DNA of 64,000 bases from Candidatus Bathyarchaeota archaeon (GCA_963733095.1 CAVTBV010000007.1:64001-128000); one strand, 5' to 3'; positions 6,071 through 34,663 are shown, counted from the stretch's first letter. Notes: generated by a model not told the origin, from the letters alone. Numbers and translations are program-made.

Positions 6071-6184
6071 CGAATTTGTAGGCGATTTTCCAAATTAACT
6101 TAGTTTACTATATGTGCTGAAAGAAAAATACAATGCCAATTAAATTCATTAAGCGAATCCTCATTTTTCCTTAAAAGCTTGAAA

Positions 6185-6207
6185 CGTGCGCGCTGGGACT
6201 CGAACCC
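6185..6207 (-). other. Degenerate tRNA 3'-end fragment
   Basis: Minus strand GGGTTCGAGTCCCAGCGCGCACG (T-loop + T-stem + acceptor strand); no 5' half. Confidence 0.55.
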
Positions 6208-6390
6208 TAAAACTTTGTTTCCGGTATCTATTCGCGAGAGAATTCAACAGGAAACGACGATAAAACGACGATTAACCTAATTTCAGGTTAATAATACATA
6301 AGCAAATGCAATGGTTAACAGGTTAAAGGGTTTAGAAGATTCCCCTCGAAAACTTTGTGGATGCGGAGCAAAGATTTCTGTGTCATTACC

Positions 6391-6443
6391 TGTCGCGTCA
6401 AAACTGGAGGCTAAATCTGTGTTTATGGTGCAGACGGGTTTTC
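6391..6443. repeat. Dispersed repeat E, copy 1
   Basis: TGTCGC..AAACTGGAGGCT..ATCTG..TGGTGCAGACGGGTTTTC also at 18880-18931. Confidence 0.8.
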
Positions 6444-6722
6444 TTTGTTTTTACAGTTTATTAAATTGTTTCAGCATAAAGCAACCATTTTAGCGGTCTT
6501 GGGGATGAATTAGGGCAAGTTTTGGGGTCAATATTGAAATACACCTTAATATCTGCTTCCAATACATAATAATTGAGGCTGCAAAAGGCTCCGACAACCA
6601 GAAAATTAAGGGGTTGCATTTTCCCCTTTCTCCTTCTCAAAGTGGTTAAGAGCCAAAGCAGCCCCCCTTCCCAAATAAACTTTTACACTCATATAGCGGG
6701 TTGGTCATCTCTGGTTTATTTA
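6444..6722 (+). ncRNA. Repeat B copy 1, containing candidate structured RNA (core 6575-6666)
   Basis: Near-identical to 15890-16165 and similar to 34390-34648; nested stems GGCTGC/GCAGCC, GGCTC/GAGCC, AACCA/TGGTT, AAGGGG/CCCCTT; CTTAATAT TATA-like box upstream. The repeat is certain; the RNA is inferred. Confidence 0.5.
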
Positions 6723-6834
6723 GCGCGCTCATTGTCTGTTATACAGGCCACAAACAAAAACAATTTCGGCTCTTTTTGTTTTGTAATGTGCCCATACAGA
6801 TTCTTTTGTGATTCTAACATAAGACAACTCAACA

Positions 6835-6918
6835 ACAAATTGGCTAAAGATATACCATGGCTAAACTAACCCAATAAAATTGGGGTCATTCACTACGCGA
6901 GTTGTCTTACTTTTTAAG
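6835..6918. repeat. Direct repeat D, copy 1
   Basis: ~84 bp match to 22549-22632. Confidence 0.9.
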
Positions 6919-6927
6919 GCTCCTCTT

Positions 6928-6954
6928 GAGGTTCAAATCCCAGCGGACCCGCCA
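6928..6954 (+). other. tRNA 3'-end fragment (att-like scar)
   Basis: GAGGTTCAAATCCCAGCGGACCCGCCA: T-loop, acceptor strand and CCA; no 5' half. Confidence 0.75.
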
Positions 6955-6956
6955 TT

Positions 6957-6988
6957 GGATTCGCTTAAAACATTAAACGAATCCTTTT
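6957..6988. terminator. Hairpin terminator candidate
   Basis: GGATTCG...CGAATCC followed by TTTT, just past the histidine kinase stop. Confidence 0.4.
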
Positions 6989-7005
6989 GAAGTTTTTAAG
7001 GTTCT

Positions 7006-9345
7006 TTACTGTTTGGCTTTTGGGGGCAAACGAATAAAGAAAGTGGTTCCTTTGCCTTCTTGGCTATCAAAAGAGACGGTGCCCCCTAACGCTTCAGTCA
7101 TGCGCTTAATCACAGGTAAGCCGAAGCCTTGACCTTTGGATTTTGTCGTCATCATTGGTGTAAATAGTTTAGGTTTGATTGCTTCTGGTATTCCCACACC
7201 CGTGTCTTTGACGGTTATAAGCACGTCGTCCGCTTCTTTGTAAGCACGTATGGTTAGTTTTCCGCCTTTGGGCATGGCTTGAACGGCGTTAGTGACCAAG
7301 TTGTTCATTATGCGATGTATGAAAGTGGAGTCAGCAAAAACTTTTTTTGCCTCGCTTTCCACGTTAACGGTTACTTTAATGTTCTCGGGTAAACCGTTCT
7401 TTTTCAACAACTCATCAATTATCAGTTTCACGTCAATTTCTTCAGCATTCGGTCTAAGCGGTCGGGCAAAATCTTGAAGATCCGCCACAATCTTGTTGAT
7501 GTAATCGGCGTTCTTTTCAATTTCTGTCAGACATTCTAATGCATTCTTTTTCTCCTCACTCTCAGGAATCGAAGCTAATTCCGTCTTAACCAAGTAGACA
7601 TCACCGGTTATAGCCTGCAGCGGATTGCGAATATCATGCCCAACCATACCGGCAGTAGCGCCAATAGCAGCTAAACGCTCAGCATCTTTCAACTGAGCGG
7701 CTCTTTTCTCTGCAAGCTCCTCCATTTGATTAGCATACTCTTCAACTCGAACAGCAGACTCCTCAAGTTTAATCTGCAACTCTTTTCGGTCAGTAACATC
7801 CACATTTGACTCTAACAGCTCAATAATTGTGCCGCCTGCACCAAATTTGCCCAACCAATAACTCTGCACAATCATTCTGTTTCCATTAGCGCATGTGTGG
7901 ACAATTTCGCCGGACCATTCACCGTCTAGCTTGAGCTTGTTTAGGATCTCATCCAGTGGTTGTGGGAATTCCGTTTTTAAGAGGGTGTTGATGTTTTGTC
8001 CAATGGCTTCTTCTTTGCTCCAACCGTACAGTTTCTCCGCACCTTTACTCCAGAAACTGATGGCGCCCTCAAGCTTTCTGACAATAATGGCGTCGGGACT
8101 AAGATCAATAAGTTCAGCTTGCCTTGCCGTAGCTTCCTCTACTCTCTTGCGCTCGGTGATGTCTCGAAATACGAGGACGACGCCCGTGGTTTTACCGTCT
8201 TTGTCTTTTATGGGTGCTCCGCTATCGTCGATTGGAACTTCCGCGCCGTTTTTTTGTATCAAGACAGTATGGTTTGCCAATCCAACAACCGCACCTTCTT
8301 TGAGAACTTTGGATATTGGGTTTTCAGCTTCTTGGCGTGTTTGCTCGTTGATGATGTTGAATACTGTCTTCATCGATTCTTTTGAAGCCTCATTTAGCTT
8401 CCAACCTGTCAGTTCTTCAGCTTCGCCATTCATGAATAGGATTTTTCCTGAAGTATCAGTGGCTATTACTGCGTCTCCGATGCTTGCCAGAGTAGTTGCC
8501 CAGCGTTGCTCACTCTGTTGTAGAGAAGCTTGAGCCTGTTCCAATTCAGTTTTGGAGGCGGTCACGGTTTTCAAATTAGTTGTCATTTTGTTGAAAGATC
8601 GTGATAATTCTCCGATTTCGTCATTTCTGTTTTCAGGAAGTTTGAAGTTCAAGTTGCCTGATCCTATGATAGCTGAACCAGCTTGCAGGTCTGATATCGA
8701 TTTGAGAGTGCGCCGAAAAGCCTGAAGGTATATAACTGCAATAAAAGCTAAGAATGCTCCTATCATGACAAAAATTAATGCTAGATTTATTGTGTTGAGT
8801 TGGTTTTCCTGGACGTTAAGTAAGGTCGACAGTTGTGAAGCATCCGATATTACTGCTTGACTTTGAATGGATATGCGGCTCCAAGATACCTGGAGCGTTG
8901 ATAATTCTTCATTTGGGTTTGACGTTAGATTCTGAGAATTTTCCACCGACGAAACTATACTGTTAAACACCACTTGCATATTTTGTTGATTAACTTGTAT
9001 GTCATGTACTAGCGCTTGCTGCCGTGGGGTATTTAGGCTTAAGTTGCCAATGTAGTTGGAAAGCGATGAATAGCTTGCTTGCCATTGGATAAGCTGTGTT
9101 TCAGAGTGGTAAAAAACGTAATCACTTGAGAGATAAGTTAGTTCAGTGGAGGCTTGCACAATGCTGTGGGCGAGGCTTTGTTGCATTCGAGTTGCGCTGG
9201 ATTGTTGAGAGGTAATTACTATCGATGACCCGATAACAACCAGTGCCAAGCTAAAGACGATGAGAATAATTTTGAATTGACTTGTAATTCGCATTGCTCT
9301 TTGCCTACTTAATGATTGTAACTGATTGGGGGTCCACAGTTTCAA
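7006..9345 (-). CDS. Membrane sensor histidine kinase (TM-HAMP-PAS-PAS-HisKA-HATPase); start probably ATG at 9294
   Basis: DEIGELSRSFNKM HAMP, two PAS/PAC, HDIRNPL H-box, NAVQA, DTGVGI, GQGFGL. Confidence 0.95.
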   Translation of the reverse strand: MKLWTPNQLQSLSRQRAMRITSQFKIILIVFSLALVVIGSSIVITSQQSSATRMQQSLAHSIVQASTELTYLSSDYVFYHSETQLIQWQASYSSLSNYIGNLSLNTPRQQALVHDIQVNQQNMQVVFNSIVSSVENSQNLTSNPNEELSTLQVSWSRISIQSQAVISDASQLSTLLNVQENQLNTINLALIFVMIGAFLAFIAVIYLQAFRRTLKSISDLQAGSAIIGSGNLNFKLPENRNDEIGELSRSFNKMTTNLKTVTASKTELEQAQASLQQSEQRWATTLASIGDAVIATDTSGKILFMNGEAEELTGWKLNEASKESMKTVFNIINEQTRQEAENPISKVLKEGAVVGLANHTVLIQKNGAEVPIDDSGAPIKDKDGKTTGVVLVFRDITERKRVEEATARQAELIDLSPDAIIVRKLEGAISFWSKGAEKLYGWSKEEAIGQNINTLLKTEFPQPLDEILNKLKLDGEWSGEIVHTCANGNRMIVQSYWLGKFGAGGTIIELLESNVDVTDRKELQIKLEESAVRVEEYANQMEELAEKRAAQLKDAERLAAIGATAGMVGHDIRNPLQAITGDVYLVKTELASIPESEEKKNALECLTEIEKNADYINKIVADLQDFARPLRPNAEEIDVKLIIDELLKKNGLPENIKVTVNVESEAKKVFADSTFIHRIMNNLVTNAVQAMPKGGKLTIRAYKEADDVLITVKDTGVGIPEAIKPKLFTPMMTTKSKGQGFGLPVIKRMTEALGGTVSFDSQEGKGTTFFIRLPPKAKQ

Positions 9346-10321
9346 GACCGGTGGTGTATATGTAGTTTGTGAAGTTGGGAATTTGCGTTTGATTAGTAAG
9401 ATGGTTGTTTATCATCCATTGAGCCTCGTCCTGCATAGCTATAACAAGTGACTGATCCAAGGAAAGGGCAAAGGAATTGTCTGGCCAATCCTGCAATGTA
9501 TATGCACTAGTGTAATTTGAGTCGTTTTGGAATATCGTTTTTGCCTCATCTGGATTGTTAATTGCGTATTCTTCTGCTTGCTTGAGTGATTTTAAGAGTC
9601 CGACTATTGCATCAGAATGACTGGATATCCAATCATTTCTGCACGATACAAGCCAAAAAGCAGTTTGTCCATTTTGCAATTGTAAACTGATGAAGTCACT
9701 TCCTAATAGCTTCTGAACCTGGCTAAAATAGACGTCCTGAGCTACAAAAGCGTCTACTGTACCATTCAAAAGGGAATTGACAGATTGCGAAAGAGGAATA
9801 TTAACCTCAGTTACATTCGTTATATTAATGCCGTTTAGGTTAAGATACCTGCCGAGATAAAATTCTAGTAACGTTCCTTGAGTTACCCCAATTTTCTTTC
9901 CTATAAGGCTTGTTGCGTTTTCGATTCCGCTGCTTTTTTTACCTATTACGCAGATATTCTGAAATGCATCGATATTTCCTAAAATGCTGATGTTGGCATT
10001 GTTGAACGATCGTGAAACAATCGGATACTCCGTGGATATCGAAACATCCGCTTTATTGTTTATCAAGCCAGTTAACGCTGCTGACCCTGAATCGTAATCT
10101 TGAATTATAACATTTAAGCCATTAGCTGCAAAGAACCCTTGATTTTCCGCGACGAAGATTAATTCCGATTGACCTGTGGATTCTTTTCCAATTATTAAAG
10201 GCTCAAGTTTTTGGTTTAAATTGTTAGTTAAAATGAAAAACGAAGCAGTAATAATCAGAATTAAAAGAATAACAGCGGCTGTTCCGATTGCAATATTTCT
10301 CTTGTTCATTTTTGCGTTCAT
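9305..10321 (-). CDS. NMT1/SsuA/THI5-like substrate-binding protein
   Basis: N-terminal TM anchor; GFFAANGLNV, GKKIGVTQGT motifs. Confidence 0.85.
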   Translation of the reverse strand: MNAKMNKRNIAIGTAAVILLILIITASFFILTNNLNQKLEPLIIGKESTGQSELIFVAENQGFFAANGLNVIIQDYDSGSAALTGLINNKADVSISTEYPIVSRSFNNANISILGNIDAFQNICVIGKKSSGIENATSLIGKKIGVTQGTLLEFYLGRYLNLNGINITNVTEVNIPLSQSVNSLLNGTVDAFVAQDVYFSQVQKLLGSDFISLQLQNGQTAFWLVSCRNDWISSHSDAIVGLLKSLKQAEEYAINNPDEAKTIFQNDSNYTSAYTLQDWPDNSFALSLDQSLVIAMQDEAQWMINNHLTNQTQIPNFTNYIYTTGLETVDPQSVTIIK

Positions 10322-10331
10322 TTTTTTGACC

Positions 10332-11366
10332 TCAATGAATGATAGTTATGGCTTCAGGATCAGCAATCATTAAGCCGTTTAAGTAAATGTAAGTCAGGAA
10401 GTTAGGCACTGAGTTTGCATCTGTCAAATTATTGCCTATTAGCCATTGGGCTTCATCCTGCAAAGCCAAAATTTGAGCCTGATCAAGAGAAACCGAGAAC
10501 TGATAATCTGACCAAACAGTTGGTAAGTACGAGCTGGAATAATTTAGGGCGTTAGTTACTATGGCGATGGATTGGTTTTGATGGGTTAAAAGATAGTTTT
10601 GGGCTTGAACCATTGATTTTAAGAATCTTACAATTAAGTCAGGATTTTGCTGCGCCCAACTATTCGTGCAGATCAAGTCCACATAAGCAAGCTGATTGGA
10701 TTGCACTTGCCACTCTACAACCTTATTTCCCAAGGAGTTTTCAATTTCGTTTACGTACGGTTGAAGCGTTACTACGGCATTAACTGAGCCATTTGCCAAA
10801 GCATTCTGAGCCCCTGTCAGGGGAACATTAACGAGTGTTACGTTACTAGGGTCTACACCGTTTAGGTCAAGAAATCTGCTAAGGTAGAATTCTCCGATAG
10901 TTCCGAATGCAACGCCTATTTTTTGACCATTCAGGTCCGAAATTTTATTAATGCCTTGGTCTGTTCTTGCAATCACATAGAAGCTTTGGAACTTGCCTAT
11001 AGATGCGAACGTGCAAAGGCTCGCATTGCCTAATGCTTCTTCGGCAACAACGAACTCGGCTGCCACTGCCAGGTTTACCTCACCGTTGAGCATCCCTTCT
11101 GCGGCGGCTGCACCTGACGCATAGTCTTTGAAGATTATGTTTAGACCGTTATTGACGAAATATTTCTGGTCTAGAGCTACGTAAATTAATGAACTTGTTT
11201 CGTTGGGAAGTATTCCTAACGTTACTGATTCGACTTTTCCTGAGTAAGGTTTTTGAGAATTAATGAAAACAAATGAACTTAAAACAATAGTTGATACCAA
11301 GATTATAACCGCTAAGGCCACCAAATTTCGCCTCTTCAGCGTCACCATCACAAACGTCCTCGACAA
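10332..11366 (-). CDS. NMT1/SsuA/THI5-like substrate-binding protein (paralog)
   Basis: Clear paralog of 9305-10321 (SLDQ..LQDEAQW..PNF..YIY). Confidence 0.85.
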   Translation of the reverse strand: MSRTFVMVTLKRRNLVALAVIILVSTIVLSSFVFINSQKPYSGKVESVTLGILPNETSSLIYVALDQKYFVNNGLNIIFKDYASGAAAAEGMLNGEVNLAVAAEFVVAEEALGNASLCTFASIGKFQSFYVIARTDQGINKISDLNGQKIGVAFGTIGEFYLSRFLDLNGVDPSNVTLVNVPLTGAQNALANGSVNAVVTLQPYVNEIENSLGNKVVEWQVQSNQLAYVDLICTNSWAQQNPDLIVRFLKSMVQAQNYLLTHQNQSIAIVTNALNYSSSYLPTVWSDYQFSVSLDQAQILALQDEAQWLIGNNLTDANSVPNFLTYIYLNGLMIADPEAITIIH

Positions 11367-11496
11367 GAAATTTGATTGTTTAAAGTAAACATTGAACGTA
11401 TTTATGAATATCTAAATAACGGCAAAAACACATTTTTCTGATTTTGACTAACTAAGAATGTTTACTGAATTAAGGGTTCGCTTAGACATTTAAGGC

Positions 11497-11509
11497 ATCC
11501 CAGCGGACC
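11497..11509 (+). other. Degenerate tRNA 3'-end fragment
   Basis: ATCCCAGCGGACC identical to part of 6928-6954. Confidence 0.45.
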
Positions 11510-11700
11510 GCTCCTTGGTGTTCCGGGAAAGACGGCTTCAAAGCTTGATTAAAATTTGCGAAATTGCCTTAACCGGCAAGTTTGAGCAAAGGGGCCAGAC
11601 CGTTTCTGGGTAAGCATGTTAGAGACTTAATCTGGTTTATGATTGAATCCAACCTATCAACAAAAGAAGGGGGAACTGTGTGTTTGGTTGGCTAGTATTT

Positions 11701-12570
11701 CTAAGCCGCGGGTTGGGTTGTCTGGGGTGCTGATTCTTGGGGTGAAGTTTTTCCTTCGAAGAATGCCAGGAGGTCTTCGTTGATTTGCTGCTTGTGTGTG
11801 GTGCACATGCCATGTGGGGCGCCTTTGTAGATTTTAAGGGTTGCATTCTTGATGATTTTGGAGGAGAGCATTGCCGAGTCTGCGATGGGAACGATTTGGT
11901 CATCGTCGCCGTGAAGAATCAAGGTTGGCACATCGATTCTTTTGAGGTCTTCGGTCATGTCTGTTTCTGAGAATGCTTTGATGCAGAAATACGCTGCTGG
12001 AAAACCTGCCATCATGCCTTGATGCCAGAAATTCTCGCGCACGCCTTCCGAAATTTTCGCGTTTGGTCTGTTGTAGCCGTAGAATGGCATTGATAGGTCT
12101 TTGAAGAATTGTGAACGGTCGGCAATGACGTTTGCGCGTATTTGGTCAAAAGCTTGTATTGGTAATCCACCGGGATTGGCTGCTGTCTTAACCATTATTG
12201 GTGGAACCGCGCCGATTAGAACGGTTTTCGCCACTCTTTTGTTTCCATGGCGACCTATGTATCTTGTAACTTCGCCGCCGCCAGTGGAATGACCGACTAA
12301 TATTACGCTTTTTAAGTCAAGTTTTTCGATGAGCTCATTTAGGTCATCCGCGTAGGTGTCCATGTCGTTTCCGTTCCAAGGTTGACTTGAGCGCCCATGC
12401 CCTCGACGGTCATGTGCAATGCAGCGGTAGCCTTTGGGCACTAGATAGAACATTTGATCTTCAAAAGCGTCTCCGTTTAGCGGCCAGCCATGACTGAAAA
12501 CAACGGTTTGCCCTTTGCCCCAATCTTTATAATAAATTTTCGTACCATCTTTGATAATAATATTAGGCAT
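11701..12570 (-). CDS. cpo: Non-heme haloperoxidase/perhydrolase (alpha/beta hydrolase)
   Basis: [35 protein letters not shown]. Confidence 0.9.
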
Positions 12571-12713
12571 TTCAAAAAACTCCTGTTCCAACAAAAGGAG
12601 CATAAGTATTTTAGCATTTGTGACGTCGCACCAACTATAACAGGTGTCAACTTCGACTGTTTGCTACGTCAACAGAGCTCCTACTGATTATAGCATTCTC
12701 GACCTTACCTTTT

Positions 12714-12740
12714 GGGGTCTGGAACCCAGCGGGCCTGCCA
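12714..12740 (+). other. Degenerate tRNA 3'-end fragment
   Basis: ...GGAACCCAGCGGGCCTGCCA, same family as 6928. Confidence 0.5.
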
Positions 12741-12953
12741 TCGCCGAGTGAATATGTACTTTTAGCGCGAAAAAGGAAGGCGGCTACAGATGATGTCTCC
12801 CTTCTTAGAGTATAACGCAACGGCTACTCAACTTACCAGGGGGTGAAAATTCGAAGCCCACCTCCAGTTTCTCAGTTACATCGTATAGATTCAATTCTTG
12901 CCAAAGCGTTCTTATCCATCATTTATTACCAAAGTGATAGACCTGAAGCCAGT

Positions 12954-14054
12954 ATGAGAAAAGACGCTTTCCTAAAACCGCTCCCATTCATTCTAGTTGT
13001 TATGCTTTGCATGACTTCCCTTATAGTGACTGTGCGAGCTGAAAGTTGGAGCTGGAGTAAAGTGGCAAGCCCCGCAGGGGAATATCTATCAGTGGATATG
13101 GTCAACTCATATGATGGGTGGGCAGTGGGATTTGACGGAGCCATAATTCATTGGGACGGAAAAAGCTGGAACAATGCGGCCAGTCCAACCAGTTATAAAT
13201 TAGTCTCAGTGGATATGGTGAGCTCTACTGAAGGATGGGCAATTGCCCAAAGAATAGACGGTTACCAGACTAATCAGTCAGTAATCAGATGGGACGGAAA
13301 AAGCTGGAACAATGTAACAAGCTCAACCGCAGCCATGCTAACATCCGTGGATATGGTTAACTCAACTGACGGATGGGCAGTGGGATATGGTGGCATGGTA
13401 ATTAGATGGAATGGAACAAACTGGAACCTTGTGGAAAGCCCCATCAATAATCCGTGGGAATCGGTAGATATGGTTAACTCAACTGACGGATGGGCAGTAG
13501 GGAGAAGAGCGCAGTATACAGGCATTAACAGTATAATCCATTGGAACGGAACTATCTGGAACCTAGTAGAAAGCCCAAAAATCGTTGGAACTCGAACATT
13601 ATGGTCAGTTGATATGGTGAGTTCAACTGACGGATGGGCTGTTGGTGATAGCGGAATAATAATCAGGTGGGATGGAACGAGCTGGAACAAAGTAATAAGC
13701 CCCATTCCAGTTACCAAACACTTGTTTTCGGTGGATATGGTTAACTCAACCGACGGATGGGCGGTGGGCTCAGATGGATGTATAATCCATTGGGATGGAG
13801 CAAGCTGGAGCAACGTTACGAGCCCAACTGGAGCTTGGTTGTATTGCGTGAATATGGTTAGCTCAACAGATGGGTGGATAGTAGGAGCCGATGGAATATA
13901 TCGTTGGCAGGAAGTTACTGGTTTTCCTACTGATTACTTTATTATCATAATCGCAGTTATCGTTGCCGTTATCGTGGTTGTTTGGTTTTTTATAAGAAAT
14001 AAGCAAGCCCAAAAACGCACTAGAAGAGTAGTTCTCGAAGAGGGTTCGAGGTAA
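12954..14054 (+). CDS. Membrane-anchored beta-propeller (Ycf48/BNR-like repeat) protein
   Basis: Seven ~40-aa repeats SVDMVxSTDGWAVG..IIxWDGxSW; signal peptide; C-terminal TM. Confidence 0.85.
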   Translation: MRKDAFLKPLPFILVVMLCMTSLIVTVRAESWSWSKVASPAGEYLSVDMVNSYDGWAVGFDGAIIHWDGKSWNNAASPTSYKLVSVDMVSSTEGWAIAQRIDGYQTNQSVIRWDGKSWNNVTSSTAAMLTSVDMVNSTDGWAVGYGGMVIRWNGTNWNLVESPINNPWESVDMVNSTDGWAVGRRAQYTGINSIIHWNGTIWNLVESPKIVGTRTLWSVDMVSSTDGWAVGDSGIIIRWDGTSWNKVISPIPVTKHLFSVDMVNSTDGWAVGSDGCIIHWDGASWSNVTSPTGAWLYCVNMVSSTDGWIVGADGIYRWQEVTGFPTDYFIIIIAVIVAVIVVVWFFIRNKQAQKRTRRVVLEEGSR

Positions 14055-14168
14055 CTGCTGCTTAAAATGCCAGGGGTGTAGCTTCTATGTCCTGCAAGCT
14101 TCATCTTTCTTGGAGAGTTAAACTCCCCATCATAGGTACAATTTGCTGCTTAGAGTTCGGTTCCCCAG
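14040..14168 (+). repeat. T-arm element with ~70-bp insert (repeat C)
   Basis: Inverted copy at 21101-21236; partial copy at 12817-12845. Confidence 0.85.
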
Positions 14169-14264
14169 ATATGTTCCTACTTATGGCAATATGTTGTAGC
14201 CAGTTATCAATCACAAAAGGTTAACTTTCAAGCGCCAGTTAATCTTCTTGAGGTTTAGTTATTT

Positions 14265-14669: not shown

Positions 14670-14739
14670 CACCAACGATCATCCTTTTTTCATTCTTTAG
14701 TCGCATAAATCAGTAGTTCTTTCAAATGTTACATTGGGG

Positions 14740-14870
14740 AAAAAGGGGAAAAGGTGGGTGACATCTCCGCTCTAGTAAGAGTCCAACGATATTCAAGTTA
14801 TCGTCCAAAGCAACTCAAATGTCAATCCCCAATACAATTAGTAATATGGATGCAGAGGGTTCGGTTCCCA
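14740..14870 (+). repeat. T-arm element copy
   Basis: AAAAGGGG..GGGTGACATCTCC..ATCCCCAATACAATTAG..ATGGATG..GGTTCGGTTCCC, homologous to the inverted copy at 21937-22034. Confidence 0.7.
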
Positions 14871-15007
14871 ACCGTATACACTTTCAGGCTAAAACAAATG
14901 TACAACTCGGAACTTGCTATTTTCTCTGCAATGATGTTTACTATCTCTATGGCAAGCATTAAATAGCTAACAATCTGATAGACGCTAACCTGGAGAAAGG
15001 GGTCAAA

Positions 15008-15274
15008 ATGGAGTCATACAAAAAGAACGCAATAGCTGCGGGAGTATTATTTGTAATTGCAGACCTTGTAGGTTTTGTGAGCTTACCCTTTATACAACCT
15101 ATGAATGATACGAATTATCTTGTAAGTGTTTCTGCAAATGCAAACAGGGTAACTACAGCAGCCCTTCTTTTGTTCATCGGTGCAATGCTTAACGTGCCAA
15201 GGTTTCTCTTCCCTGGAATAGTTGTTGGCTATCTGTACAAAAGGCTGCACGAATCAGGAATGGCTAAGAAATAA
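15008..15274 (+). pseudogene. Truncated/chimeric DUF4386-like membrane protein
   Basis: N-terminus KKNAIAAGVLFVIA..NYLVSVSANANRV resembles DUF4386, but the ORF is only 88 aa. Confidence 0.5.
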
Positions 15275-15295
15275 AGTTGGAAAGAAGGGTTTTCG

Positions 15296-15778
15296 ATGAA
15301 GTGCTTGCTAATTGTGTATTCTTACCATCACAACAACACCCAAAAAATAGCAGAAGTCTTCGCAAAGGTGCTTGATGCGGAAATTAGAACTCCCCAGCAG
15401 ACTAACCCTGAAGAGCTTCAAGATTATGACTTAGTAGGCTTTGGGTCAGGGATAGACACTGACAAAAACTACAAAGAACTCCTTGACTTTGCAGATAGAC
15501 TACCTCAAGTCACAGACAAGAAAGCATTCGTCTTCTCAACCAGCGGAATGCCCGTTGGAATTTCAAGTCAACAGCGATTGGAAGAGTACACAAGCAAATG
15601 TCATACGACTCTTAAAGAAACTCTTCAATCCAAAGGCTACACGATTGTTGACGAGTTTGGTTGCGCGGGTTTCAACACTAACAAATTTCTCAAGTATTTT
15701 GGTGGAATAAACAAAGGAAGACCTAATGAAGAAGACCTCAAACACGCCGAATCCTTTGCTGAGAAGCTTAAAGTTTAA
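15296..15778 (+). CDS. Flavodoxin family protein
   Basis: YSYHHNNTQKIA, YDLVGFGSGI, FVFSTSG, KGRPNEEDL. Confidence 0.9.
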   Translation: MKCLLIVYSYHHNNTQKIAEVFAKVLDAEIRTPQQTNPEELQDYDLVGFGSGIDTDKNYKELLDFADRLPQVTDKKAFVFSTSGMPVGISSQQRLEEYTSKCHTTLKETLQSKGYTIVDEFGCAGFNTNKFLKYFGGINKGRPNEEDLKHAESFAEKLKV

Positions 15779-15863
15779 GCCAGAAAAAATTGGTGCCTTG
15801 GCGAGCTATCTGCGTAAGACGTACTTAAGTCTCAGAGTCATGAAACTTCAATATTTAGTTGTG

Positions 15864-16165
15864 TTCTTAATATTATGGTAACTTCAGATTTTGTTTTTAC
15901 AGTTCACTAAATTTTTTCTGCATAAAGCAACCATTTTAGCGGTCTTGGGGATGAATTAGGGCAAGTTTTGGGGTCAATATTGAAATACACCTTAATATCT
16001 GCTTCCAATACATAATAATTGAGGCTGCAAAAGGCTCCGACAACCAGAAAATTAAGGGGTTGCATTTTCCCCTTTCTCCTCAAGTGGTTAAGAGCCAAAG
16101 CAGCCCCCCTTCCCAAATAAACTTTTACACTCATATAGCGGGTTGGTCATTCTCTGGTTTATTTA
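15864..16165 (+). ncRNA. Repeat B copy 2 (core 16021-16108)
   Basis: Near-identical to copy 1. Confidence 0.5.
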
Positions 16166-16287
16166 TGAAATTGTTTAATTAGAAATTAAAAAACTGGCTG
16201 AGATTTTATTTTTTGTTAACCTATTATGTTTATTGTGTAGAATACTGGTTTTTGGATGCTAAAAAAAGAGAAAGAAAGGTTTAGTGT

Positions 16288-18003
16288 TTATCTGGGTATC
16301 TTTAGGGTTATCGCTGTTGTGTGTGTAGTTGTTCCATCGGTTCCTTGGATGGTGATTGTGTAGGTCCCTGTTTGAGTAAATCTTGGCACAGTAATTGTTA
16401 AAGTTGAAGCTGTAGCTTGAGATGTTATTGTTACGGGGTTTGTGCTAAAGCTGTATGTTACACCTGTTGGCGTGTCACTAGTAGCTGAGAGGGTGACTTT
16501 GCCTGTGTAGCCGTTGATTGGGGATATGGTGATTCTGTCGGTTCCTGATCTGCCTGTTTGGATGTTTAGGTTTGTTGAACTTGCTGATAGTGAGTAGTCA
16601 GTGGGCGATGTTACTTGTACGTTTATGGTTATTGGGTGGGTTATTGCTGGATTGCTGTTGTCAGTGCCGGTTATCATTACTTGGTAGGATCCCGCTGCGG
16701 TGCCTGCTGGTATTGTGAGGGTTGCTGTTTCAAAGCCCGTTATGGACGATGGGTCAATTGATACTCCAGTTATTCCTGTGGCTGTTAGCTGGACTGTGTC
16801 GGAGAAGCCGCCAACTGAAGCGATGGTTATGGTTGAGGTTCCTTGGCTACCGTAGGGTATTGTTAATGTTGGTGGGTTGGCTGAGATTGTGAAGTCTGGT
16901 TGTGGTGGTGCTGCAAAGTTGGTTGTTAGTGGGCTGCCTATTCCTGTGGTCAGATCATATCCTGTTCCTGCTGAGTAGCCGCCGCTTTGACCAATGGTTA
17001 CGTCTCTAAAGTCTGCGGAATAACTAGTTGTTGAAGCGTAAAGGCTGTAGAGGTTAGTGCTGGTTGCTGATTTTCCGAGGGCTTGGATTGCTGCCCATTG
17101 AGGTGCTCCTGCACTGGTGCCGCCGACGACGTACCAACCCTTTGTTGGCATGAAGGTGTCGTATACTGCGAATCCTGTGTTTGGATCGGCGTTGAATGAA
17201 ACGTCTGGTGTTGCCCTGTGTTTGTAGCCTAAATTGGCTATGGCTTGGCCTGAGGATACTGGTTCATAGCTGCTTACTCCGCCGCCGCTTCCGCTCCAAG
17301 CTGTTTCTGACCACTGGCCGTTGGTGTTTGTGAGGGTTGTGCCTCCTACTGAAATGACGTTTGCGCTACTGCTTGGCCAGATGATTGCTCCGCCGGTATC
17401 GCCTGATGCAGCAAAGAATTGTACGCCTGTGGTGCTTGTGAAGTAGCTGTCGTAGCTGGTTTCGCTTGAGAATTCATTTCCGCCCCAGCTCATGGAAACA
17501 GACACTACTCCGGGTTGGCTTTTTGCATAGATGACTGCGCTAAGTAAGTCATTTAAGCTTGCAGATCTCGCTTCGACGAGTAAGATTTTTGCTTCTGGAG
17601 CTATGGCGTGTGCCCATTGAACATCGAGTGCTTCTTCCATTCCCCAGTTGTAGTCATTGGAAATGCGACTTGACATCTTATGTATAGTTAGACTTGGGGT
17701 TGGTAGGTTGTTGTATGTTGAGAAATAAGCGAGGTCAGAGGCTAAGTTTGGGTTGTTGTATGCGTCCACTATCGCGATTGTTGTTCCAGCTCCTCCATCC
17801 GAGGGAAGGTTGTATGCTGTTTTAATGTCAGAAGGCCAGTAAACCACTGTGCCGCTTGTTGCTTGCTGCTTTATGTGGTGCATTGGTTGTGCTTGCCAAT
17901 CTGTTGTTTGCGCGTTTACAAGTGAAGGTGCGATTGCTAAAATCATGAGGAACATTAAGGTTAGAGTTAATATTTTCAGCGTTATTTTCGCCAATTTCTT
18001 CAT
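16288..18003 (-). CDS. Secreted S53 (sedolisin/kumamolisin-like) peptidase with two C-terminal Ig-like repeats
   Basis: EEALD, AASGD, PDVS, GGTSAGAP, GYDLTTGIGSP. Confidence 0.9.
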   Translation of the reverse strand: MKKLAKITLKILTLTLMFLMILAIAPSLVNAQTTDWQAQPMHHIKQQATSGTVVYWPSDIKTAYNLPSDGGAGTTIAIVDAYNNPNLASDLAYFSTYNNLPTPSLTIHKMSSRISNDYNWGMEEALDVQWAHAIAPEAKILLVEARSASLNDLLSAVIYAKSQPGVVSVSMSWGGNEFSSETSYDSYFTSTTGVQFFAASGDTGGAIIWPSSSANVISVGGTTLTNTNGQWSETAWSGSGGGVSSYEPVSSGQAIANLGYKHRATPDVSFNADPNTGFAVYDTFMPTKGWYVVGGTSAGAPQWAAIQALGKSATSTNLYSLYASTTSYSADFRDVTIGQSGGYSAGTGYDLTTGIGSPLTTNFAAPPQPDFTISANPPTLTIPYGSQGTSTITIASVGGFSDTVQLTATGITGVSIDPSSITGFETATLTIPAGTAAGSYQVMITGTDNSNPAITHPITINVQVTSPTDYSLSASSTNLNIQTGRSGTDRITISPINGYTGKVTLSATSDTPTGVTYSFSTNPVTITSQATASTLTITVPRFTQTGTYTITIQGTDGTTTHTTAITLKIPR

Positions 18004-18364
18004 TCTCCATGCATTTTTTGTTAAAATTGCTATTAAATTCTTGTTGATGTTCTAAGCATATAAGCGTTATCTTTGTATGATGGTTAGCTATACTTTTTGT
18101 CAGGCAAAAACTAGCGGGCAACATGGCATTTAACTCGTGTTTACATTATGGCATGTGTTGATGATGTATTAGGAAAAAAATGCGAGCAATAGCTGAAACA
18201 AATCATCGCCTTTTGTTCGAGTTCTTTAAGAATTAATGGAATAAGAGGTGGGTAATTAGGGTTGGAAAAGGAAAAAAGGGATTGTTCACTGACTTCAACT
18301 ATTAAGGGAATAGCAAATTAGAAAAGGAAGATTTGAGCTAGTGATCTCTTAGTTTACTTTAAGT

Positions 18365-18766
18365 CTAGGGTGGCATGTCAGGCTGCAGAAGTCCAAAAGA
18401 GTTCCCTTCTGGGTCCGCGACTACTGCAAACCAGCCTACTGTGGGTATTTGTTTTTTTGGAACCAAGATCTTTCCGCCTTCTTTCGTAACCTTATCTGTG
18501 TATTTGTCGATGTCTTCTACGCTGATGTAATTGACTTGTGGAGCGCTTTGCATTCCTTGAGTACGCGGGTATAAGCCACCGTTAACGCCTGGGCGCTGAA
18601 GCATTCCTTTCTCGTCGATGGGAACCGTAGCTATATTGTAGTATTCGACATCTGGCATGGAGGTTTTCGTGATTTTCCATCCGAGGACATTTTCATAGAA
18701 TTTTTGCAGTTTCTTAACATCATTTGCAGGAATTTCAAAATGAACAACTGTATGATCCATTTTCAA
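18365..18766 (-). CDS. VOC/glyoxalase family protein
   Basis: VVHFEIPA..FYENVLGW..DPEGNSFGL. Confidence 0.9.
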   Translation of the reverse strand: MKMDHTVVHFEIPANDVKKLQKFYENVLGWKITKTSMPDVEYYNIATVPIDEKGMLQRPGVNGGLYPRTQGMQSAPQVNYISVEDIDKYTDKVTKEGGKILVPKKQIPTVGWFAVVADPEGNSFGLLQPDMPP

Positions 18767-18879
18767 ACAACTCTTTGTTTAGGATTTCAAAGTTTGCCGT
18801 TAAGTTAAAACTATGTGTTTGTTCTATGCCTACCACAAGCAGTTAAGCCTTAAGCATGTAGAATCAAAAAATACTACTT

Positions 18880-18931
18880 GTCGCACCGAAACTGGAGGCT
18901 GCATCTGCGCTTGTGGTGCAGACGGGTTTTC
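18880..18931. repeat. Dispersed repeat E, copy 2
   Basis: Match to 6391-6443. Confidence 0.8.
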
Positions 18932-19169
18932 GGGAAGTTGATGTCCGTGGTTATTTTCACTGGGCTCTTACGGACAATTATGTGGGAAAAAGGGTTTGGT
19001 CAGAAGTTTGGATTGTTCTGTTGACTTATGAGACTAAGTCTTGGAAAGCAGGAAAAAGGGGGAGGTTCTTTAGGGGATAATAATCGCAGAGAAGACGGAA
19101 GAACCGTGAAGGCCACATGCATAAAACAGAAATATTTCCAGCACCATATTATTGGGTGAGGCTGTTAGG

Positions 19170-19340
19170 ATGAGCCAATACGTTAAGGGAGCTGAACCTG
19201 ACAGGTGGCATTGGATTAAAGATTGCAAGATGTATCCTCGCGTAGTCATCCAGAAAAGAGGCATCAGACCAACTCGTGACCTCTGCGACGAATGCCAGGA
19301 ACTAGAGAAAAAGATACTTCTCAAAACAGCAGCAACATAA
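19170..19340 (+). CDS. Small His/Cys putative zinc-binding protein
   Basis: MSQYVKG..WHWxxxCxxYP...LCDEC. Confidence 0.6.
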   Translation: MSQYVKGAEPDRWHWIKDCKMYPRVVIQKRGIRPTRDLCDECQELEKKILLKTAAT

Positions 19341-19424
19341 ACAAAACTTACTCCCTAAACAAAGAATTGCGATATCAAGGTAGCTTGCGCTCTAAAACTT
19401 GAATAGTGGTTTGAGCGGCAGGCA

Positions 19425-19708
19425 GAGACGGATTTGAACCCGTCTGAAGTGGAGATGTCACCCGCAAATCTCCTCTTTTTTATGGGCTTAGGAAAAAAGC
19501 GATAACTATTCTCTAGTTCTGGGGATGGGCTTTTGAGTTGATGTACGATTCCCTACCCCGCTTAGGCTTCAAGGGAGTGGTTTGCATAGGTTATTACCGA
19601 CCCTCCAGTAGCTTGACTGGCTTATAAAAATGAGCATCACCCGCCACCTTGGGGTTGGATTCGAACACTCTGTGGATGGAGAAATCACCCGCAAAACTCT
19701 CCTTTTTG
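19425..19708 (-). repeat. Three tandem T-arm elements without intervening genes
   Basis: Minus strand: GCGGGTGATTTCTCC..GTGTTCGAATCCAACCCC (19649-19708), CCCATCCCCAG (19515-19541), GCGGGTGACATCTCC..GACGGGTTCAAATCCGTC (19425-19481). Confidence 0.7.
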
Positions 19709-19759
19709 TTTAACATATAGCGCGCGCTATCACAGGGTATTTTTTCAAGCTATTTTTCA

Positions 19760-20221
19760 CTACCACTTATGTACTCTCTTCTTATAATCGCTGTATTGTT
19801 GACCCAGTATTCGTGTCAGGTCTTTTTCCTCATACGTTGCCATCTTATCAATGAAGATGAAGAATGCAATCCACACTATGAAGGACAGGATTGAGAGTGT
19901 GGCTATCGAGAAGCCTAATAGGATTAGCAATTCTCCCAGATACATTGGGTGTCTAACCCTTCCGTAGACTCCTATATCGATAACTTTTCCCTCGGTGTTG
20001 CTGAATACTACTGCTGCAGATTTTCTCACAAAATAGACTCCAACTATGAAGGAGATGACTCCGATGGGGACTGATGCAAAGAGTGATGTTAATCCTAACA
20101 GGTTTAACGTATAGTGTAGTAAGAAGGAATCTATTCCCCAGATTATCAAGAAAATAAACGCGAAGACGACTTGTGCACTATCGTTAATGGGGTTCTCTGC
20201 ACCGATACCATGACGTGACAT
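19760..20221 (-). CDS. Isoprenylcysteine carboxylmethyltransferase/PEMT family protein
   Basis: GVYGRVRHPMYLG, EEKDL..GQQYSDYKKRV. Confidence 0.9.
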   Translation of the reverse strand: MSRHGIGAENPINDSAQVVFAFIFLIIWGIDSFLLHYTLNLLGLTSLFASVPIGVISFIVGVYFVRKSAAVVFSNTEGKVIDIGVYGRVRHPMYLGELLILLGFSIATLSILSFIVWIAFFIFIDKMATYEEKDLTRILGQQYSDYKKRVHKW

Positions 20222-20251
20222 AGTTATCAGATTCTCATCTGTCTTGGCATT

Positions 20252-20638
20252 TTAGGTTTCTGTTTTTGGGTCAACAGCTTTTTTTTCGAGCATTAAACCA
20301 ATGATGGTTGGTGCGATGATGCCTATAAAATATGGAATCCACGTTCTAACATCTGAGAAGTAGCTAAACCCTGTGAAGGGTACTGCAACAAAGCAGACGT
20401 CAAGTAGAATAAAAAAGCCTGCCCAAACTGCACCTATAGTTAATCCCTTCCTAAAACTAAGAGGTTTAGCTATAAATGCGAACGCAAAAACAAGTGCAGT
20501 CACAAAAACTGTTGTTACAACCCAAACCCACCAAACGTTTGAGTCGAAGCCAAGCAATACTATGGCTGCAACCTCTAAAGAAATGATGACATAAATTAAA
20601 ATGGGGTAAAGAAGGAGCTTCTTTAAATCTTTAGGCAT
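20252..20638 (-). CDS. Hypothetical 4-TM membrane protein
   Basis: Hydrophobic ORF co-oriented with neighbours. Confidence 0.7.
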   Translation of the reverse strand: MPKDLKKLLLYPILIYVIISLEVAAIVLLGFDSNVWWVWVVTTVFVTALVFAFAFIAKPLSFRKGLTIGAVWAGFFILLDVCFVAVPFTGFSYFSDVRTWIPYFIGIIAPTIIGLMLEKKAVDPKTET

Positions 20639-20777
20639 AAGCTAAATTGTTTATCTATCTAGTTTATTTATGTTTTTTGTAAATGAATCATACGGCGGTA
20701 AAACCCTTGTGCTGTTTGTGTTCTTTAAGCATCGTTTAACGCTTGTTTCTTTTGCCATTTGCGCCTTTTTCCGTGGA

Positions 20778-20803
20778 TGGTGGACTCGCTGGGATTTGAA
20801 CTC
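20778..20803 (-). other. tRNA 3'-end fragment (att-like scar)
   Basis: Minus strand GAGTTCAAATCCCAGCGAGTCCACCA. Confidence 0.75.
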
Positions 20804-20988
20804 TATTTTCTCGATCTCCTTACCAAGTAAAAAAGATTCATAACCAATGAAAGACCGATCATTATTCCTTCAACGAAAGCTGAAATAGAAAAGCCCAAAT
20901 ACTCAAAATCTGTAAAGCGCCCTAAAAGAATCCCGATAGCTAAAGAAATCATGCCTATTGACAAGGCAGTTTCATCCTTAAGCCCCAT
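20803..20988 (-). CDS. Small 2-TM membrane protein
   Basis: 61 aa, two hydrophobic helices, GGTGA ribosome site. Confidence 0.7.
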   Translation of the reverse strand: MGLKDETALSIGMISLAIGILLGRFTDFEYLGFSISAFVEGIMIGLSLVMNLFYLVRRSRK

Positions 20989-21100
20989 CTAATTCACCAA
21001 GAATAATAGTAAGCCTTTTTCAATTAAGATTTTTTGGTCGTTTGATCCTGTACTGCAGAAAAAATAATTCCCACAAATTCTTCCATCCATAAGGAGCTTG

Positions 21101-21272
21101 CAGGGGAACCAAATCCCAAACTTCAAAATAGAAATTGTGCTGGGGATGGAGTTTAACTCTCCAAGAAAGATGAAGCTTGCGGGATATAGAAGCTACACCC
21201 CCCTGGCAACTTGAGCAGCCGTTGCCTCGAACCCTCTGTGATTGGAGAAATCACCCGTACCACCTCATTTTT
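21101..21272 (-). repeat. T-arm element with repeat-C insert
   Basis: Inverted match to 14040-14168 plus CGGGTGATTTCTCC head. Confidence 0.85.
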
Positions 21273-21284
21273 CATTAAAAATAC

Positions 21285-21456
21285 AGGGCGATTTGGTATT
21301 GCTGATTCCGCAACAACCTACGAGTATAAACGCTCCTTTGGGGTTGCGTGAGAAAGGAACGGTACCCTGAGCTTCGGCAAGACGGGAGGCGTATTTCACC
21401 CCAAAGCCTGCATCTAAGACCAGATAAGGCAACGTTAGATCTCGCTTGCCCGCCCC
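21285..21456 (-). ncRNA. Candidate structured ncRNA
   Basis: GC-richer intergenic segment with several nested stems (see findings). Confidence 0.35.
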
Positions 21457-21505
21457 ACGTATAATACTTCATAAAAACTTCGTTGTGATGGTTGGATGAG
21501 TTTAT

Positions 21506-21805
21506 TCATGATGTAGCAACAACCTCTCCATCGTAGGTTTGCAGGACAAGCTTATTCCAAATACCGCTTTCCCGCAACCAGTTTCTATAGTTTTCAGCTC
21601 CTACTTTTCCCAGCTCCTCGGATTGCCATTCAGCTACGGCTACTGTTACTTCTGCGCTGGCACGCATCAGCCTATAACTTATGAACCCCGCCTGCTTCTG
21701 GAAAACCTTAATGCCTTCATTATTTATCCTTTCAAATACCTCCTCTGCCTCAGGTGAACTGAGGTCTATACTCCATTTCCCTATGGAACAACGAAGATAC
21801 GTCAA
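21506..21805 (-). CDS. ABM-like (dimeric alpha+beta barrel) protein
   Basis: KQAGFISYRLM..AVAEWQSEE pattern. Confidence 0.65.
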   Translation of the reverse strand: MTYLRCSIGKWSIDLSSPEAEEVFERINNEGIKVFQKQAGFISYRLMRASAEVTVAVAEWQSEELGKVGAENYRNWLRESGIWNKLVLQTYDGEVVATS

Positions 21806-21936
21806 AAAATTTTCACCCTTGAAGGTTTAGAACAACGCCATAATTAACAATTTTGCTGAAAAGCGCTTTAAATGTCTGATTGAGTCACTTCTCGTTTCTT
21901 GGCATTAGTTGATTCGCATCGCATCAGCTGGTGAAT

Positions 21937-22034
21937 AGGGAACCGAACCTTGACCATCCATCTCAGTATTTGTACTGGGGATGGGGGTTGAACCCATGAC
22001 AGGCTCGGGATTTCACTCGCATAACCCCCTTTTT
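21937..22034 (-). repeat. T-arm element, most complete copy
   Basis: Minus strand AAAAAGGGGG..GCGAGTGAAATCCC..ATGGG-TTCAACC-CCCAT-CCCCAGTACAA..ATGGATGG..GGTTCGGTTCCC. Confidence 0.75.
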
Positions 22035-22074
22035 CTAATTCAGTTATTAGGTTGTTAGGCTGCTTTGTCTTTTC

Positions 22075-22410
22075 TTATTCAGGTTGTTCGCCATCTCCAC
22101 ATGCTAGTCCAGTCATAGCTTTGACGTAAGCTGATGCTTCTTTAAATGTCTTGAATGGTCCATAAAAGAAGTCGTATTGAGAATGGGATTCTTTGGTGGG
22201 TTGCGTATCAGACTCGATAGTTTCGGGTCTCTTTCCTTCTTTAAACCCTAAGTAAATTTGCAAGTCATTAACGCCTTTTAGTATTTCATACGACGAAGTG
22301 ACAGGTACAACTTTATTTAGCATTCCGCCTACGGACCAGTATTTTTCTTCGGAGAGTTTGATTGAACATTCTCCATCTCGAGGCGTCCACTCGCGAAACC
22401 CTTTGGGCAC
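22075..22410 (-). CDS. Hypothetical protein
   Basis: 111-aa ORF, GTG start overlapping the upstream stop. Confidence 0.55.
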   Translation of the reverse strand: MPKGFREWTPRDGECSIKLSEEKYWSVGGMLNKVVPVTSSYEILKGVNDLQIYLGFKEGKRPETIESDTQPTKESHSQYDFFYGPFKTFKEASAYVKAMTGLACGDGEQPE

Positions 22411-22550
22411 TATTTTTTCTCGCGTTTTTTGCCTAATTTGATTAAGCTTCTGACTCGCTGCCCTCCGCGTTGGCCGGCTTCTTCTAAGCTGACTTTTTCC
22501 CGAGCTCCTTTTGAGCCTTCATGCTGCTTGGCCCGTTTGGCGCCGACGAC
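22410..22550 (-). pseudogene. 5'-truncated KGG/stress-protein-like fragment
   Basis: ..KVSLEEAGQRGGQRVRSLIKLGKKREKK*; no in-frame start, cut at repeat D. Confidence 0.4.
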
Positions 22551-22632
22551 AAATTGGCTTAAGATATACCATGGCTAAACTACCCCAACAAACTCGGGGT
22601 CATTCACTACGCGAGTTGTCTCACTTTTTAAG
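22549..22632. repeat. Direct repeat D, copy 2
   Basis: Match to 6835-6918. Confidence 0.9.
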
Positions 22633-22751
22633 CCTGTCTTCGCTTTGCCCCCAACTAATACCGTGTGTAGCTAATGCGGTTTTTCTAAAAGAGGGTTAAA
22701 GCCCAATACTAATTAGCTTAGACGCCTAGAAATGTAAGTTGGTAATCAAGT

Positions 22752-34648: not shown

Positions 34649-34663
34649 TGGGAGCTTACAATT

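Follow-up and report, generated by a model that had tools for sequence, protein, structure and literature searches.

Co-oriented tRNA 3′-end fragments behind a shared arm motif in a Bathyarchaeia genome: probable scars of tRNA-targeting integrative elements

tRNA-targeting elements and the fragment field of a Bathyarchaeia contig

Integration into tRNA genes is already known as a way of gathering genes, and its archaeal form, 'gene capture', was reportedly described by She et al. The locus considered here, positions 6185-22632 of a 64,000-nt stretch (the window; C7:64001-128000 of the 173.7-kb contig C7), belongs to the genome of a Bathyarchaeia archaeon (2.84 Mb in 16 contigs, about 43% GC, assembly 95% complete) and holds a field of tRNA 3′-end fragments that is unusually dense and is marked by a shared flanking motif. 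Its recurring attachment (att)-like unit consists of a conserved arm of about 40 nt and a core reaching from the T-loop to the tRNA 3′ end, with or without a second flank motif. With a probability of roughly 0.6, we take the region to be a graveyard of tRNA-targeting integrative elements, tandem or accreted, which has been orphaned and rearranged and is not an integron.

Among the closest described systems, archaeal integrated mobile genetic elements of the SSV and pNOB8 types target tRNA genes, leave displaced 3′ fragments as direct repeats, integrate in tandem and may later lose their integrases (in passages of PMC8371274). The present elements resemble them in these respects; they differ from the 'suicidal' SSV type, as outlined in part of PMC7253208, in that their integrases are unsplit and show the non-partitioning arrangement. 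In bacterial integrative and conjugative or mobilizable elements (ICEs and IMEs), the accretion model of Pavlovic, Bellanger and Guedon comprises integration at tRNA 3′ ends, decay to integrase-less att-flanked blocks, i.e., cis-mobilizable elements (CIMEs), and their stacking to composites which move together and capture genes (sections of PMC5704250). The window shares with CIMEs the direct orientation of att sites, and integrase remnants occur in other arrays of the genome, although not in the window. In contrast to CIMEs, the host is an archaeon, modules measure only 0.23-3 kb, core types are mixed, conjugation genes are lacking, and the array is detached from tRNA gene and integrase. Tycheposons of Prochlorococcus, according to parts of their description (10.1101/2020.12.28.424599), are tRNA-side islands remodelled by tyrosine recombinases, with tandem elements between partial tRNAs, fragmented integrases, partial tRNAs scattered through the islands and niche genes as cargo. 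They belong to another domain and integrase lineage, and in the same parts of that description the islands stay at the tRNA gene; in addition, the shared arm of about 40 nt that stands before every fragment sets the present units apart.

Integrons have been reported in Archaea as well (in part of 10.1101/2022.02.06.479319), and an earlier note on this DNA saw an integron-like platform in the field. The likeness consists of short, mostly single-gene modules between recombination sites of the same orientation, and one integrase could serve many of them. The array differs in that no IntI-type integrase lies beside it, that neither an attI-like site nor a folded, attC-like hairpin recombination site is found and the units lack the symmetry of attC, that its modules carry their own upstream regions, and that its sites are duplex att sequences derived from tRNA genes. 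By no defining feature examined is the array an integron. What stands of the earlier note are the att-site remnants, their clustering, the lack of conserved gene order and a recurring module; the analogy with integrons is not supported.

Bathyarchaeia are abundant and hardly cultured, and the turnover of their large accessory gene pools is little understood. Our literature search, which did not cover supplements of papers, found no description of Bathyarchaeia elements or att sites of this kind, and the relevant passages of one source mention viral integrases of Bathyarchaeia and no att sites (PMC10848311). A searchable marker for integrative elements of this group is available in the combination of arm motif and tRNA 3′ core; it permits mapping of island borders, old integrations and cargo in metagenome-assembled genomes, from which the integrases have often disappeared.

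Fragments, arms and anchored elements

The tRNA 3′ pieces are real, far above chance and non-random. Using the 3′ 25-mers (T-stem end to CCA) of 39 tRNA genes as queries, an ungapped scan of both strands of the whole genome yields 37 matches with at most five mismatches outside tRNA genes; the same scan gives 4 when the genome is reversed and 0 for a Markov-1 genome. With exactly six mismatches, there are 34 matches versus 12 and 16 in the two null genomes, and one of this class, 12199-12223 on the minus strand, lies inside a hydrolase gene and is probably due to chance. Four of the 37 matches fall within 6185-22632, a fifth window match starts at 35990 (minus strand), and a profile search adds three further units. 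The four are an Arg-type fragment with CCA at 6930-6954 (+; 24/25 to the 3′ end of tRNA-Arg(TCT)), the core of unit U2 at 19416-19440 (-; 20/25), an arm-less tRNA-Arg(CCG)-like fragment with CCA at 20778-20802 (-; 22/25) and the tRNA-Cys-like core of unit U5 at 21970-21994 (-; 20/25). In these clean copies, similarity to tRNA begins at the last two G of the 5′ strand of the T-stem, i.e., just before the T-loop, as the earlier note had it. Three other copies named there are weak and insufficient when standing alone, namely an Arg-type piece at 6186-6207 (-; 15/17 to tRNA, with an exact 12-nt flank motif), an interrupted Arg-like T-arm/acceptor piece at 11474-11509 (+; read by eye) and an Arg(CCG)-like acceptor piece at 12725-12740 (+; 14/16).

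The two fragment families distinguished from the sequence trace back to the genome's own tRNAs, one to Arg-type tRNA genes and the other to tRNA-Cys, and the pieces indeed face the plus direction at 6.9-14.9 kb and the minus direction at 19.4-22 kb. CCA is gene-encoded in most tRNA genes of the genome. ARAGORN reports 33 tRNA genes, or 42 in intron mode (one being a false 2.9-kb call on C7), a set that is incomplete, since at least one gene was missed and several expected isoacceptors (e.g., Trp, Tyr) are lacking. Even in intron mode it finds no true tRNA gene on C7 or in the window, and the tRNA family of Rfam has no match in 1-40000 at E ≤ 10, where only five chance-level matches of any kind were obtained; the pieces therefore stand without 5′ halves, as had been claimed.

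Directly 5′ of the T-arm pieces lies the arm, a feature absent from the first description, which consists of an A-run, a G-run and the motif GCGGGTGAYATCTCC, its end being about 21-23 nt before GGTTCRAATCC. Behind the T-loop, units differ in their acceptor part, which may be of Leu, Ala, Arg, Cys, Pro or Ser type; the arm accordingly belongs to the element and the core to its target. Some cores run on into the native 3′ flank of their tRNA, as is the case for tRNA-Ala, tRNA-Cys and the GGATTCGCTTAA hairpin behind Arg-type pieces. In the window, this hairpin (GGATTCGCTTAA...TTAAACGAATCC, 6957-6984) follows directly after the fragment at 6930-6954, GGATTCGCTTAA lies at 6149-6160 downstream of the minus-strand piece at 6186-6207, and a diverged GGATTCGCTTAA is also located 3′ of the genome's tRNA-Arg(CCG) gene. 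The Cys-type units of the window carry the second flank motif, GTTCGGTTCCC, 3′ of their core, and it resembles a conserved flank found between tRNA-Leu genes and their integrases. Judged from its layout, arm-core-flank should be the expected look of a junction between two tandem elements. A fuzzy search for the second flank motif is convincing only behind the Cys-type units of the window; as a general feature of units it was dismissed, the other four matches being doubtful and one of them lying inside a long Cys-type unit on C3. Such long Cys-type units comprise an arm, half a T-loop, about 60 nt and a Cys-like acceptor, and the arm exists at other loci in a longer variant that includes a short palindrome.

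The arm may be a protein-binding site. Two coding explanations were rejected: it is not an integrase C-terminus on the opposite strand, since integrase frames end before the tRNA genes, and it is not the start of a short open reading frame (ORF), since the spacing from the arm GTG to the T-loop is out of frame and stops occur in some copies. A second type of tyrosine recombinase, with a long coiled-coil-like C-terminal extension, is encoded at C9:114719-116095 and C13:16337-17611. The two copies, 80% identical to one another, each precede a unit by 2.1-2.5 kb; in these units the arm has no A/G-run and retains CGGGTGAYATCTCC, so that the arm motif is common to elements of two integrase types.

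Genome-wide, a profile search at E ≤ 0.01 finds 41 arm+core units; the profile was trained on copies of this same genome, so that counts here are partly circular, and matches in relatives and metagenomes are independent. Units are strongly clustered and not evenly scattered, 17 of 29 same-contig neighbour pairs being less than 3.5 kb apart, whereas 2000 trials of uniform placement produced 1.9 such pairs on average and never more than 7. All 17 close pairs share their strand, and eight spacings are shorter than 1.3 kb. In the window, five units fall within 7.3 kb (U2 to U5 all on the minus strand within 2.6 kb) and a sixth lies 4.7 kb upstream of the window. Other clusters are located at C9:109-121 kb, C9:229-233 kb, C9:257-267 kb (seven units in 10.4 kb), C3:0.4-3.6 kb, C12:170-179 kb and C13:14-29 kb; the assembly is fragmented and several arrays reach contig ends. 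Co-orientation of genes with pieces, which the earlier note had seen, is observed in the window, where a same-strand ORF lies directly 5′ of all five units, and genome-wide for only 20 of 36 units, both counts resting on crude longest-ORF calls.

At E ≤ 0.001, a sequence-only model of the unit matches 39 of the 41 genomes searched from the order, with 1-39 matches per genome, and the best match reaches E ≤ 1e-8 in 23 of the 41; the window's own genome has 39 matches. Lone weak matches of this model may be true tRNA genes, as 2 of 33 nhmmer matches are 3′ halves of intact tRNAs. Relatives recovered by a query with one of the genome's integrases bear names such as Candidatus Bathycorpusculum and Bathyarchaeia.

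Elsewhere in the genome and in relatives, the units are distal ends of integrative elements that start at an intact tRNA gene, beside which an integrase is encoded; the pieces are thus att-site remnants of tRNA-targeting tyrosine-integrase elements. C14 carries a probable tRNA-Leu(UAA) gene with an intron. Behind it, at a distance of 63 nt and in convergent orientation, lies the gene for a 375-aa tyrosine integrase with a Zn-ribbon-like N-terminus, and 17.6 kb downstream there are an arm and a core matching tRNA-Leu(UAA) at 25 of 26 nt. This tRNA gene (C14:10362-10486) was read by eye and has an insertion of about 32 nt in the D-arm region; it was missed by ARAGORN and has no Rfam match at E ≤ 0.01, and its acceptor stem shows a compensatory change with respect to the orthologous locus L037. 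Orthologues of the C14 integrase (70-82% identity) lie directly behind tRNA-Leu(UAG) at 7 of 11 other Bathyarchaeia loci and, by an eye reading, behind a tRNA-Leu(UAA)-like gene at an eighth (L037), with the flank motif between tRNA-Leu and integrase conserved across those loci. In relatives, arrays of Leu- and Ala-type units follow tRNA-Leu(UAG) and tRNA-Ala(UGC) at spacings of 375 nt to 7.9 kb, and a predicted viral contig terminates in an arm and a Leu-like core. For the tRNA-Thr/tRNA-Leu(UAG) locus, a tblastx comparison with relative G033 shows no shared flank genes. PF00589 has 20 matches in the genome, of which about 11 are intact or near-intact members of one family (C-terminus ...FRKRK), and many members of this family adjoin tRNA genes. 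Convergent integrases behind a tRNA gene are found on C14, C16, C5 and C2, and next to tRNA genes the integrase frames are uninterrupted, ending 34-80 nt short of the tRNA gene.

Decay, mobilisation and other accounts of the array

A graveyard of such elements is the simplest account that covers all loci, and it follows a known cycle. It builds on the unit anatomy, the clustering and co-orientation, the association of units elsewhere with tRNA genes and integrases, and the integrase remnants in other arrays, all of which are seen directly. A family of elements widespread in this archaeal order would employ a tyrosine integrase for recombination into the 3′ part of tRNA genes, with the crossover from the T-loop onward. 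Integration would rebuild the tRNA gene at one end, with the convergent integrase gene right behind it, and would fuse the arm (GCGGGTGAYATCTCC) at the far end to the displaced tRNA 3′ fragment. Repeated integration at the same or at resident att sites would then produce head-to-tail stacks, in which scars with flank motifs on both sides would be junctions of two tandem elements, and loss of the integrases and of most element genes would leave short cargo modules between co-oriented arm+core scars. At the window locus, recombination between att sites or some other rearrangement may have cut the arrays from their tRNA gene, inverted one block and mixed Arg and Cys cores, in an order of events that can be proposed only provisionally; what hints at recombination between att sites is the convergence of the arrays and their mixture of core types. 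Inversion by an integrase, which might have acted here, is described between tRNA-derived sites in Thermococcales (part of PMC5495485).

Traces of decay are visible in other arrays. A tblastn search finds 33 integrase-like segments in the genome, 13 of which measure 90-430 nt. Of the 17 short intervals between units, 4 retain such a short remnant, and the C14 array has remnants directly following its cores at 23.6, 28.1 and 30.6 kb. These remnants argue for decay of larger elements and not for capture of cassettes. Across the 41 genomes, numbers of units and of integrase homologues are correlated (Spearman 0.52), which is a weak indication as the genomes are related, and exceptions are a genome with 10 units and no integrase (G012) and another with no unit and six integrases (G040).

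Several observations weigh against the graveyard account. The window has a displaced 3′ fragment (20-24/25) and neither an intact tRNA gene nor an adjacent integrase: PF00589 and tblastn searches confirm the earlier note in that no integrase lies in the window, none of the 20 genomic PF00589 matches is on C7, and the best tblastn match of 20 integrase frames on this contig has an E value of 0.03 over 25 aa, so that not even a remnant is recognized there. Anchor and enzyme at this locus are presumed from the other loci. Mixing of Arg, Cys and other cores in one array is not predicted by stacking at one tRNA gene. Furthermore, 13 of the 17 short intervals are free of any integrase trace, eight spacings lie below 1.3 kb, and many tiny modules retain their arms although random decay should often delete arms too. 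A 13.3-kb block at C1:89069-102491, between tRNA-Ser(CGA) and an arm+core unit (23/25, 21 nt exact), codes for a MarR-type regulator, ChlI/D-like and CobN chelatase subunits, CbiZ, FecCD/ABC uptake components and an isochorismatase, and looks like an att-flanked metabolic island; its contig has no PF00589 match and no integrase family was found in the block's 11 large ORFs. Finally, one module occurs in at least four different att contexts. The short spacings, these several contexts and the C1 block agree with a mobilisation of modules without integrase no less well than with decay.

Such a cassette economy would consist of mini-elements (cargo plus arm-core-flank) lacking an integrase of their own and moved in trans by integrases encoded elsewhere; those of the Zn-ribbon tyrosine family would excise and circularise the modules and re-insert them at tRNA genes or at any unit. 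The genome encodes about 11 integrases of the matching family, intact or nearly so, that could act in this way, three to four window units have motifs on both sides of the core and look attP-like, and the close pairs are all co-oriented, eight of them at spacings too short for an integrase gene. A recurring module is the single-gene one at 14181-14722 (+), which comprises the gene for a 134-aa protein (14265-14669) and its upstream region; copies with 88-89% nucleotide identity exist in two other species and two metagenome contigs, bracketed by different units each time. In one species (G010) it is preceded by a Leu-type unit ending in CCA and followed by an arm, and in the other (G001) it is preceded by a Cys-like piece with the flank motif. 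In one metagenome contig (L053) it comes after two units, first one of Leu and then one of Cys type, and before a different unit, and in the other (L054) a unit like that at C12:170.7 kb stands before it, and a Cys core and a Leu unit after it. At least one single-gene module thus recurs elsewhere between different att units. However, of 29 metagenome loci returned for the 134-aa gene, the 21 near-full-length ones were scanned, the eight partial ones being omitted, and 15 of these 21 are devoid of a unit (present at 6), many of the contigs being short. An ordinary paralogue of the gene is found in the genome far from any unit. For nine window modules, 10 of 12 homologous loci in relatives have no unit within 4 kb. 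A block of 434 nt at 19045-19479 (-), with arm, core, flank and a convergent gene for a 56-aa protein (19170-19340, +), is duplicated at C7:58845-59278, 24 kb upstream, at 97% identity and with unrelated flanks on both sides; this might speak for a mobile cassette, but the duplicate is contiguous across the core and therefore was not inserted through it. The 56-aa gene has no paralogue in the genome besides the duplicate. The remnants in 4 of 17 intervals indicate that some mini-modules are decay products, and genes accompany the unit orientation in hardly more than half of the genomic cases. An excised or circular form or an empty site was not seen: no excision joints were found in four of nine runs, a result that is uninformative as all nine are low-depth contig runs with at most 28% of sampled words. 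We consider trans mobilisation rather unlikely, yet the short modules with intact arms and the one module in several contexts, both poorly explained by a graveyard, keep it in the discussion. If true, it would amount to a second, independently evolved cassette system built from ordinary duplex att sites, and it would explain the near-complete loss of gene order among the species of the genus.

Somewhat less probable still seems an import in one piece, by which C7 from about 59.2 to 86.6 kb, bracketed by direct repeats, would be or have been a single large composite mobile island that had accreted smaller elements before its arrival and brought its scars along. The direct repeats of 434 nt (97%) and 90 nt (91%), the confinement of a local repeat family to C7 and an extra glpX paralogous to a copy on C1 would fit such an island. 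The same is true for the first 43 kb of the window having no synteny with more than 30 relatives: no conserved gene order was found for 3001-23000 among 30 relatives or for 23001-43000 among 20, the relatives all being different species, and single window genes match scattered places in them at 65-94% identity, so that gene order is not stable, as the earlier note had anticipated. On the other side, GC content is flat (0.40-0.46) over 1-38 kb, as in the rest of the genome, a family search of 1-40 kb finds no mobility gene of any kind, and the two repeat pairs overlap and are not cleanly nested. A functional role of the units as tRNA-like RNAs, i.e., mRNA 3′-end signals, small RNAs or 3′ halves of split tRNAs, appears very improbable. 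The position of all five window units just 3′ of a same-strand ORF and conservation of the arm across an order would be in line with it, but only 20 of 36 units genome-wide follow such an ORF, RNAalifold predicts no base pairs and hence no consensus structure for 37 aligned copies, Rfam gives no match, many copies have a degenerate or truncated acceptor or T-stem, and profile searches of both strands, which returned only copies with the arm before the T-arm, found no 5′-half partner with a complementary leader.

Map of the window locus and minor observations

At the left edge of the region, the Arg-type pieces at 6186-6207 (-) and 6930-6954 (+) point away from each other. There follow genes for a PAS histidine kinase (7006-9345), two NMT1-type binding proteins (9305-11366) and an alpha/beta hydrolase (11701-12603). 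The plus-oriented array then consists of the Arg piece at 12725, a unit with a degenerate arm and a long Cys-type core (12769-12843; 74% to 21199-21273), which abuts the start of a BNR propeller gene (12843-14054), an arm-less long Cys-type copy (14040-14165), the module with the 134-aa gene, unit U1 (14739-14869) and two small genes, i.e., a small ORF (15008-15274) and a flavodoxin (15296-15778). Within the arm-less copy, 14040-14126 is 90% identical to 21148-21237 (-) and GTTCGGTTCCC lies at 14155-14165; the propeller ORF ends inside its start (14054), at the place where an arm would be expected. U1 has its arm at 14739-14787, a degenerate Cys-like end at 14827-14837 and the second flank motif at 14859-14869.

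From the right, the minus-oriented array starts with the gene for a 111-aa protein (22075-22410), followed by U5 (21938-22037; arm and core 21978-22037, second flank motif 21938-21948), a gene with a weak ABM-like match (21506-21805), a 65-aa ORF without family match (21275-21472) and the long Cys-type unit U4 (21103-21275; arm 21214-21275, Cys-like end 21135-21145, second flank motif 21103-21114). A 61-aa gene, one of two encoding membrane proteins (20803-20988 and 20252-20638), comes next, then the Arg fragment at 20778 and two membrane/methyltransferase genes, including that for a PEMT/ICMT-like methyltransferase (19760-20221). The array continues with U3 (arm and core 19643-19707, profile match 19651-19707), a spacer of 230 nt, U2 (arm and T-arm/acceptor-like core, 19416-19481, by profile), near which an arm-less Cys-like acceptor piece lies at 19516-19529, a glyoxalase (18365-18766) and a 571-aa protein with an Ig-like tail (16288-18003). 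The gene content given in the earlier note is borne out for hydrolase, propeller, flavodoxin, glyoxalase, methyltransferase and, weakly, ABM; its S53 protease, the 571-aa protein, is without Pfam support. The 65-aa ORF has a 65%-identical paralogue at C3:3618-3782, and since a long Cys-type unit directly follows each of the two on the 3′ side, the ORF may be part of an element end.

The two arrays converge on the copy at 15890-16150 of a local repeat of about 265-280 nt, which is present in four same-strand copies, all on C7 (6444-6708 and 15890-16150, 98-100% identical; diverged at 34392-34615; and C7:50696-50974). It contains a short hairpin with a chance-level Rfam match (Atu_C9). The copies of the 90-nt direct repeat (6832-6921 and 22546-22635, both +) bracket the region of the earlier note almost exactly. 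A further direct repeat of about 230 nt (286-512 and 34090-34317, 87-90% identical, 33.8 kb apart) has a third, partial copy at 27557-27625, and its copy at 34090-34317 adjoins a copy of the 265-nt repeat.

Searches for McrA and AmoA gave no match in the genome, the latter carrying little weight as control genomes likewise gave none. The glpX-type fructose-1,6-bisphosphatase gene at 36130-37113 has a 76%-identical copy at C1:213055-214038, which makes the window gene an extra paralogue. From 38000 to 50000, GC content drops to 0.35-0.36 (about 0.41-0.45 elsewhere); this segment starts with genes for an asparagine synthase and a glycosyltransferase and is probably a surface-polysaccharide island. 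On C12, the two tRNA-Thr genes at 66693-66769 (TGT) and 78141-78217 (CGT) possess a GGAGCAAGGCC-like T-arm instead of GGTTCRAATCC.

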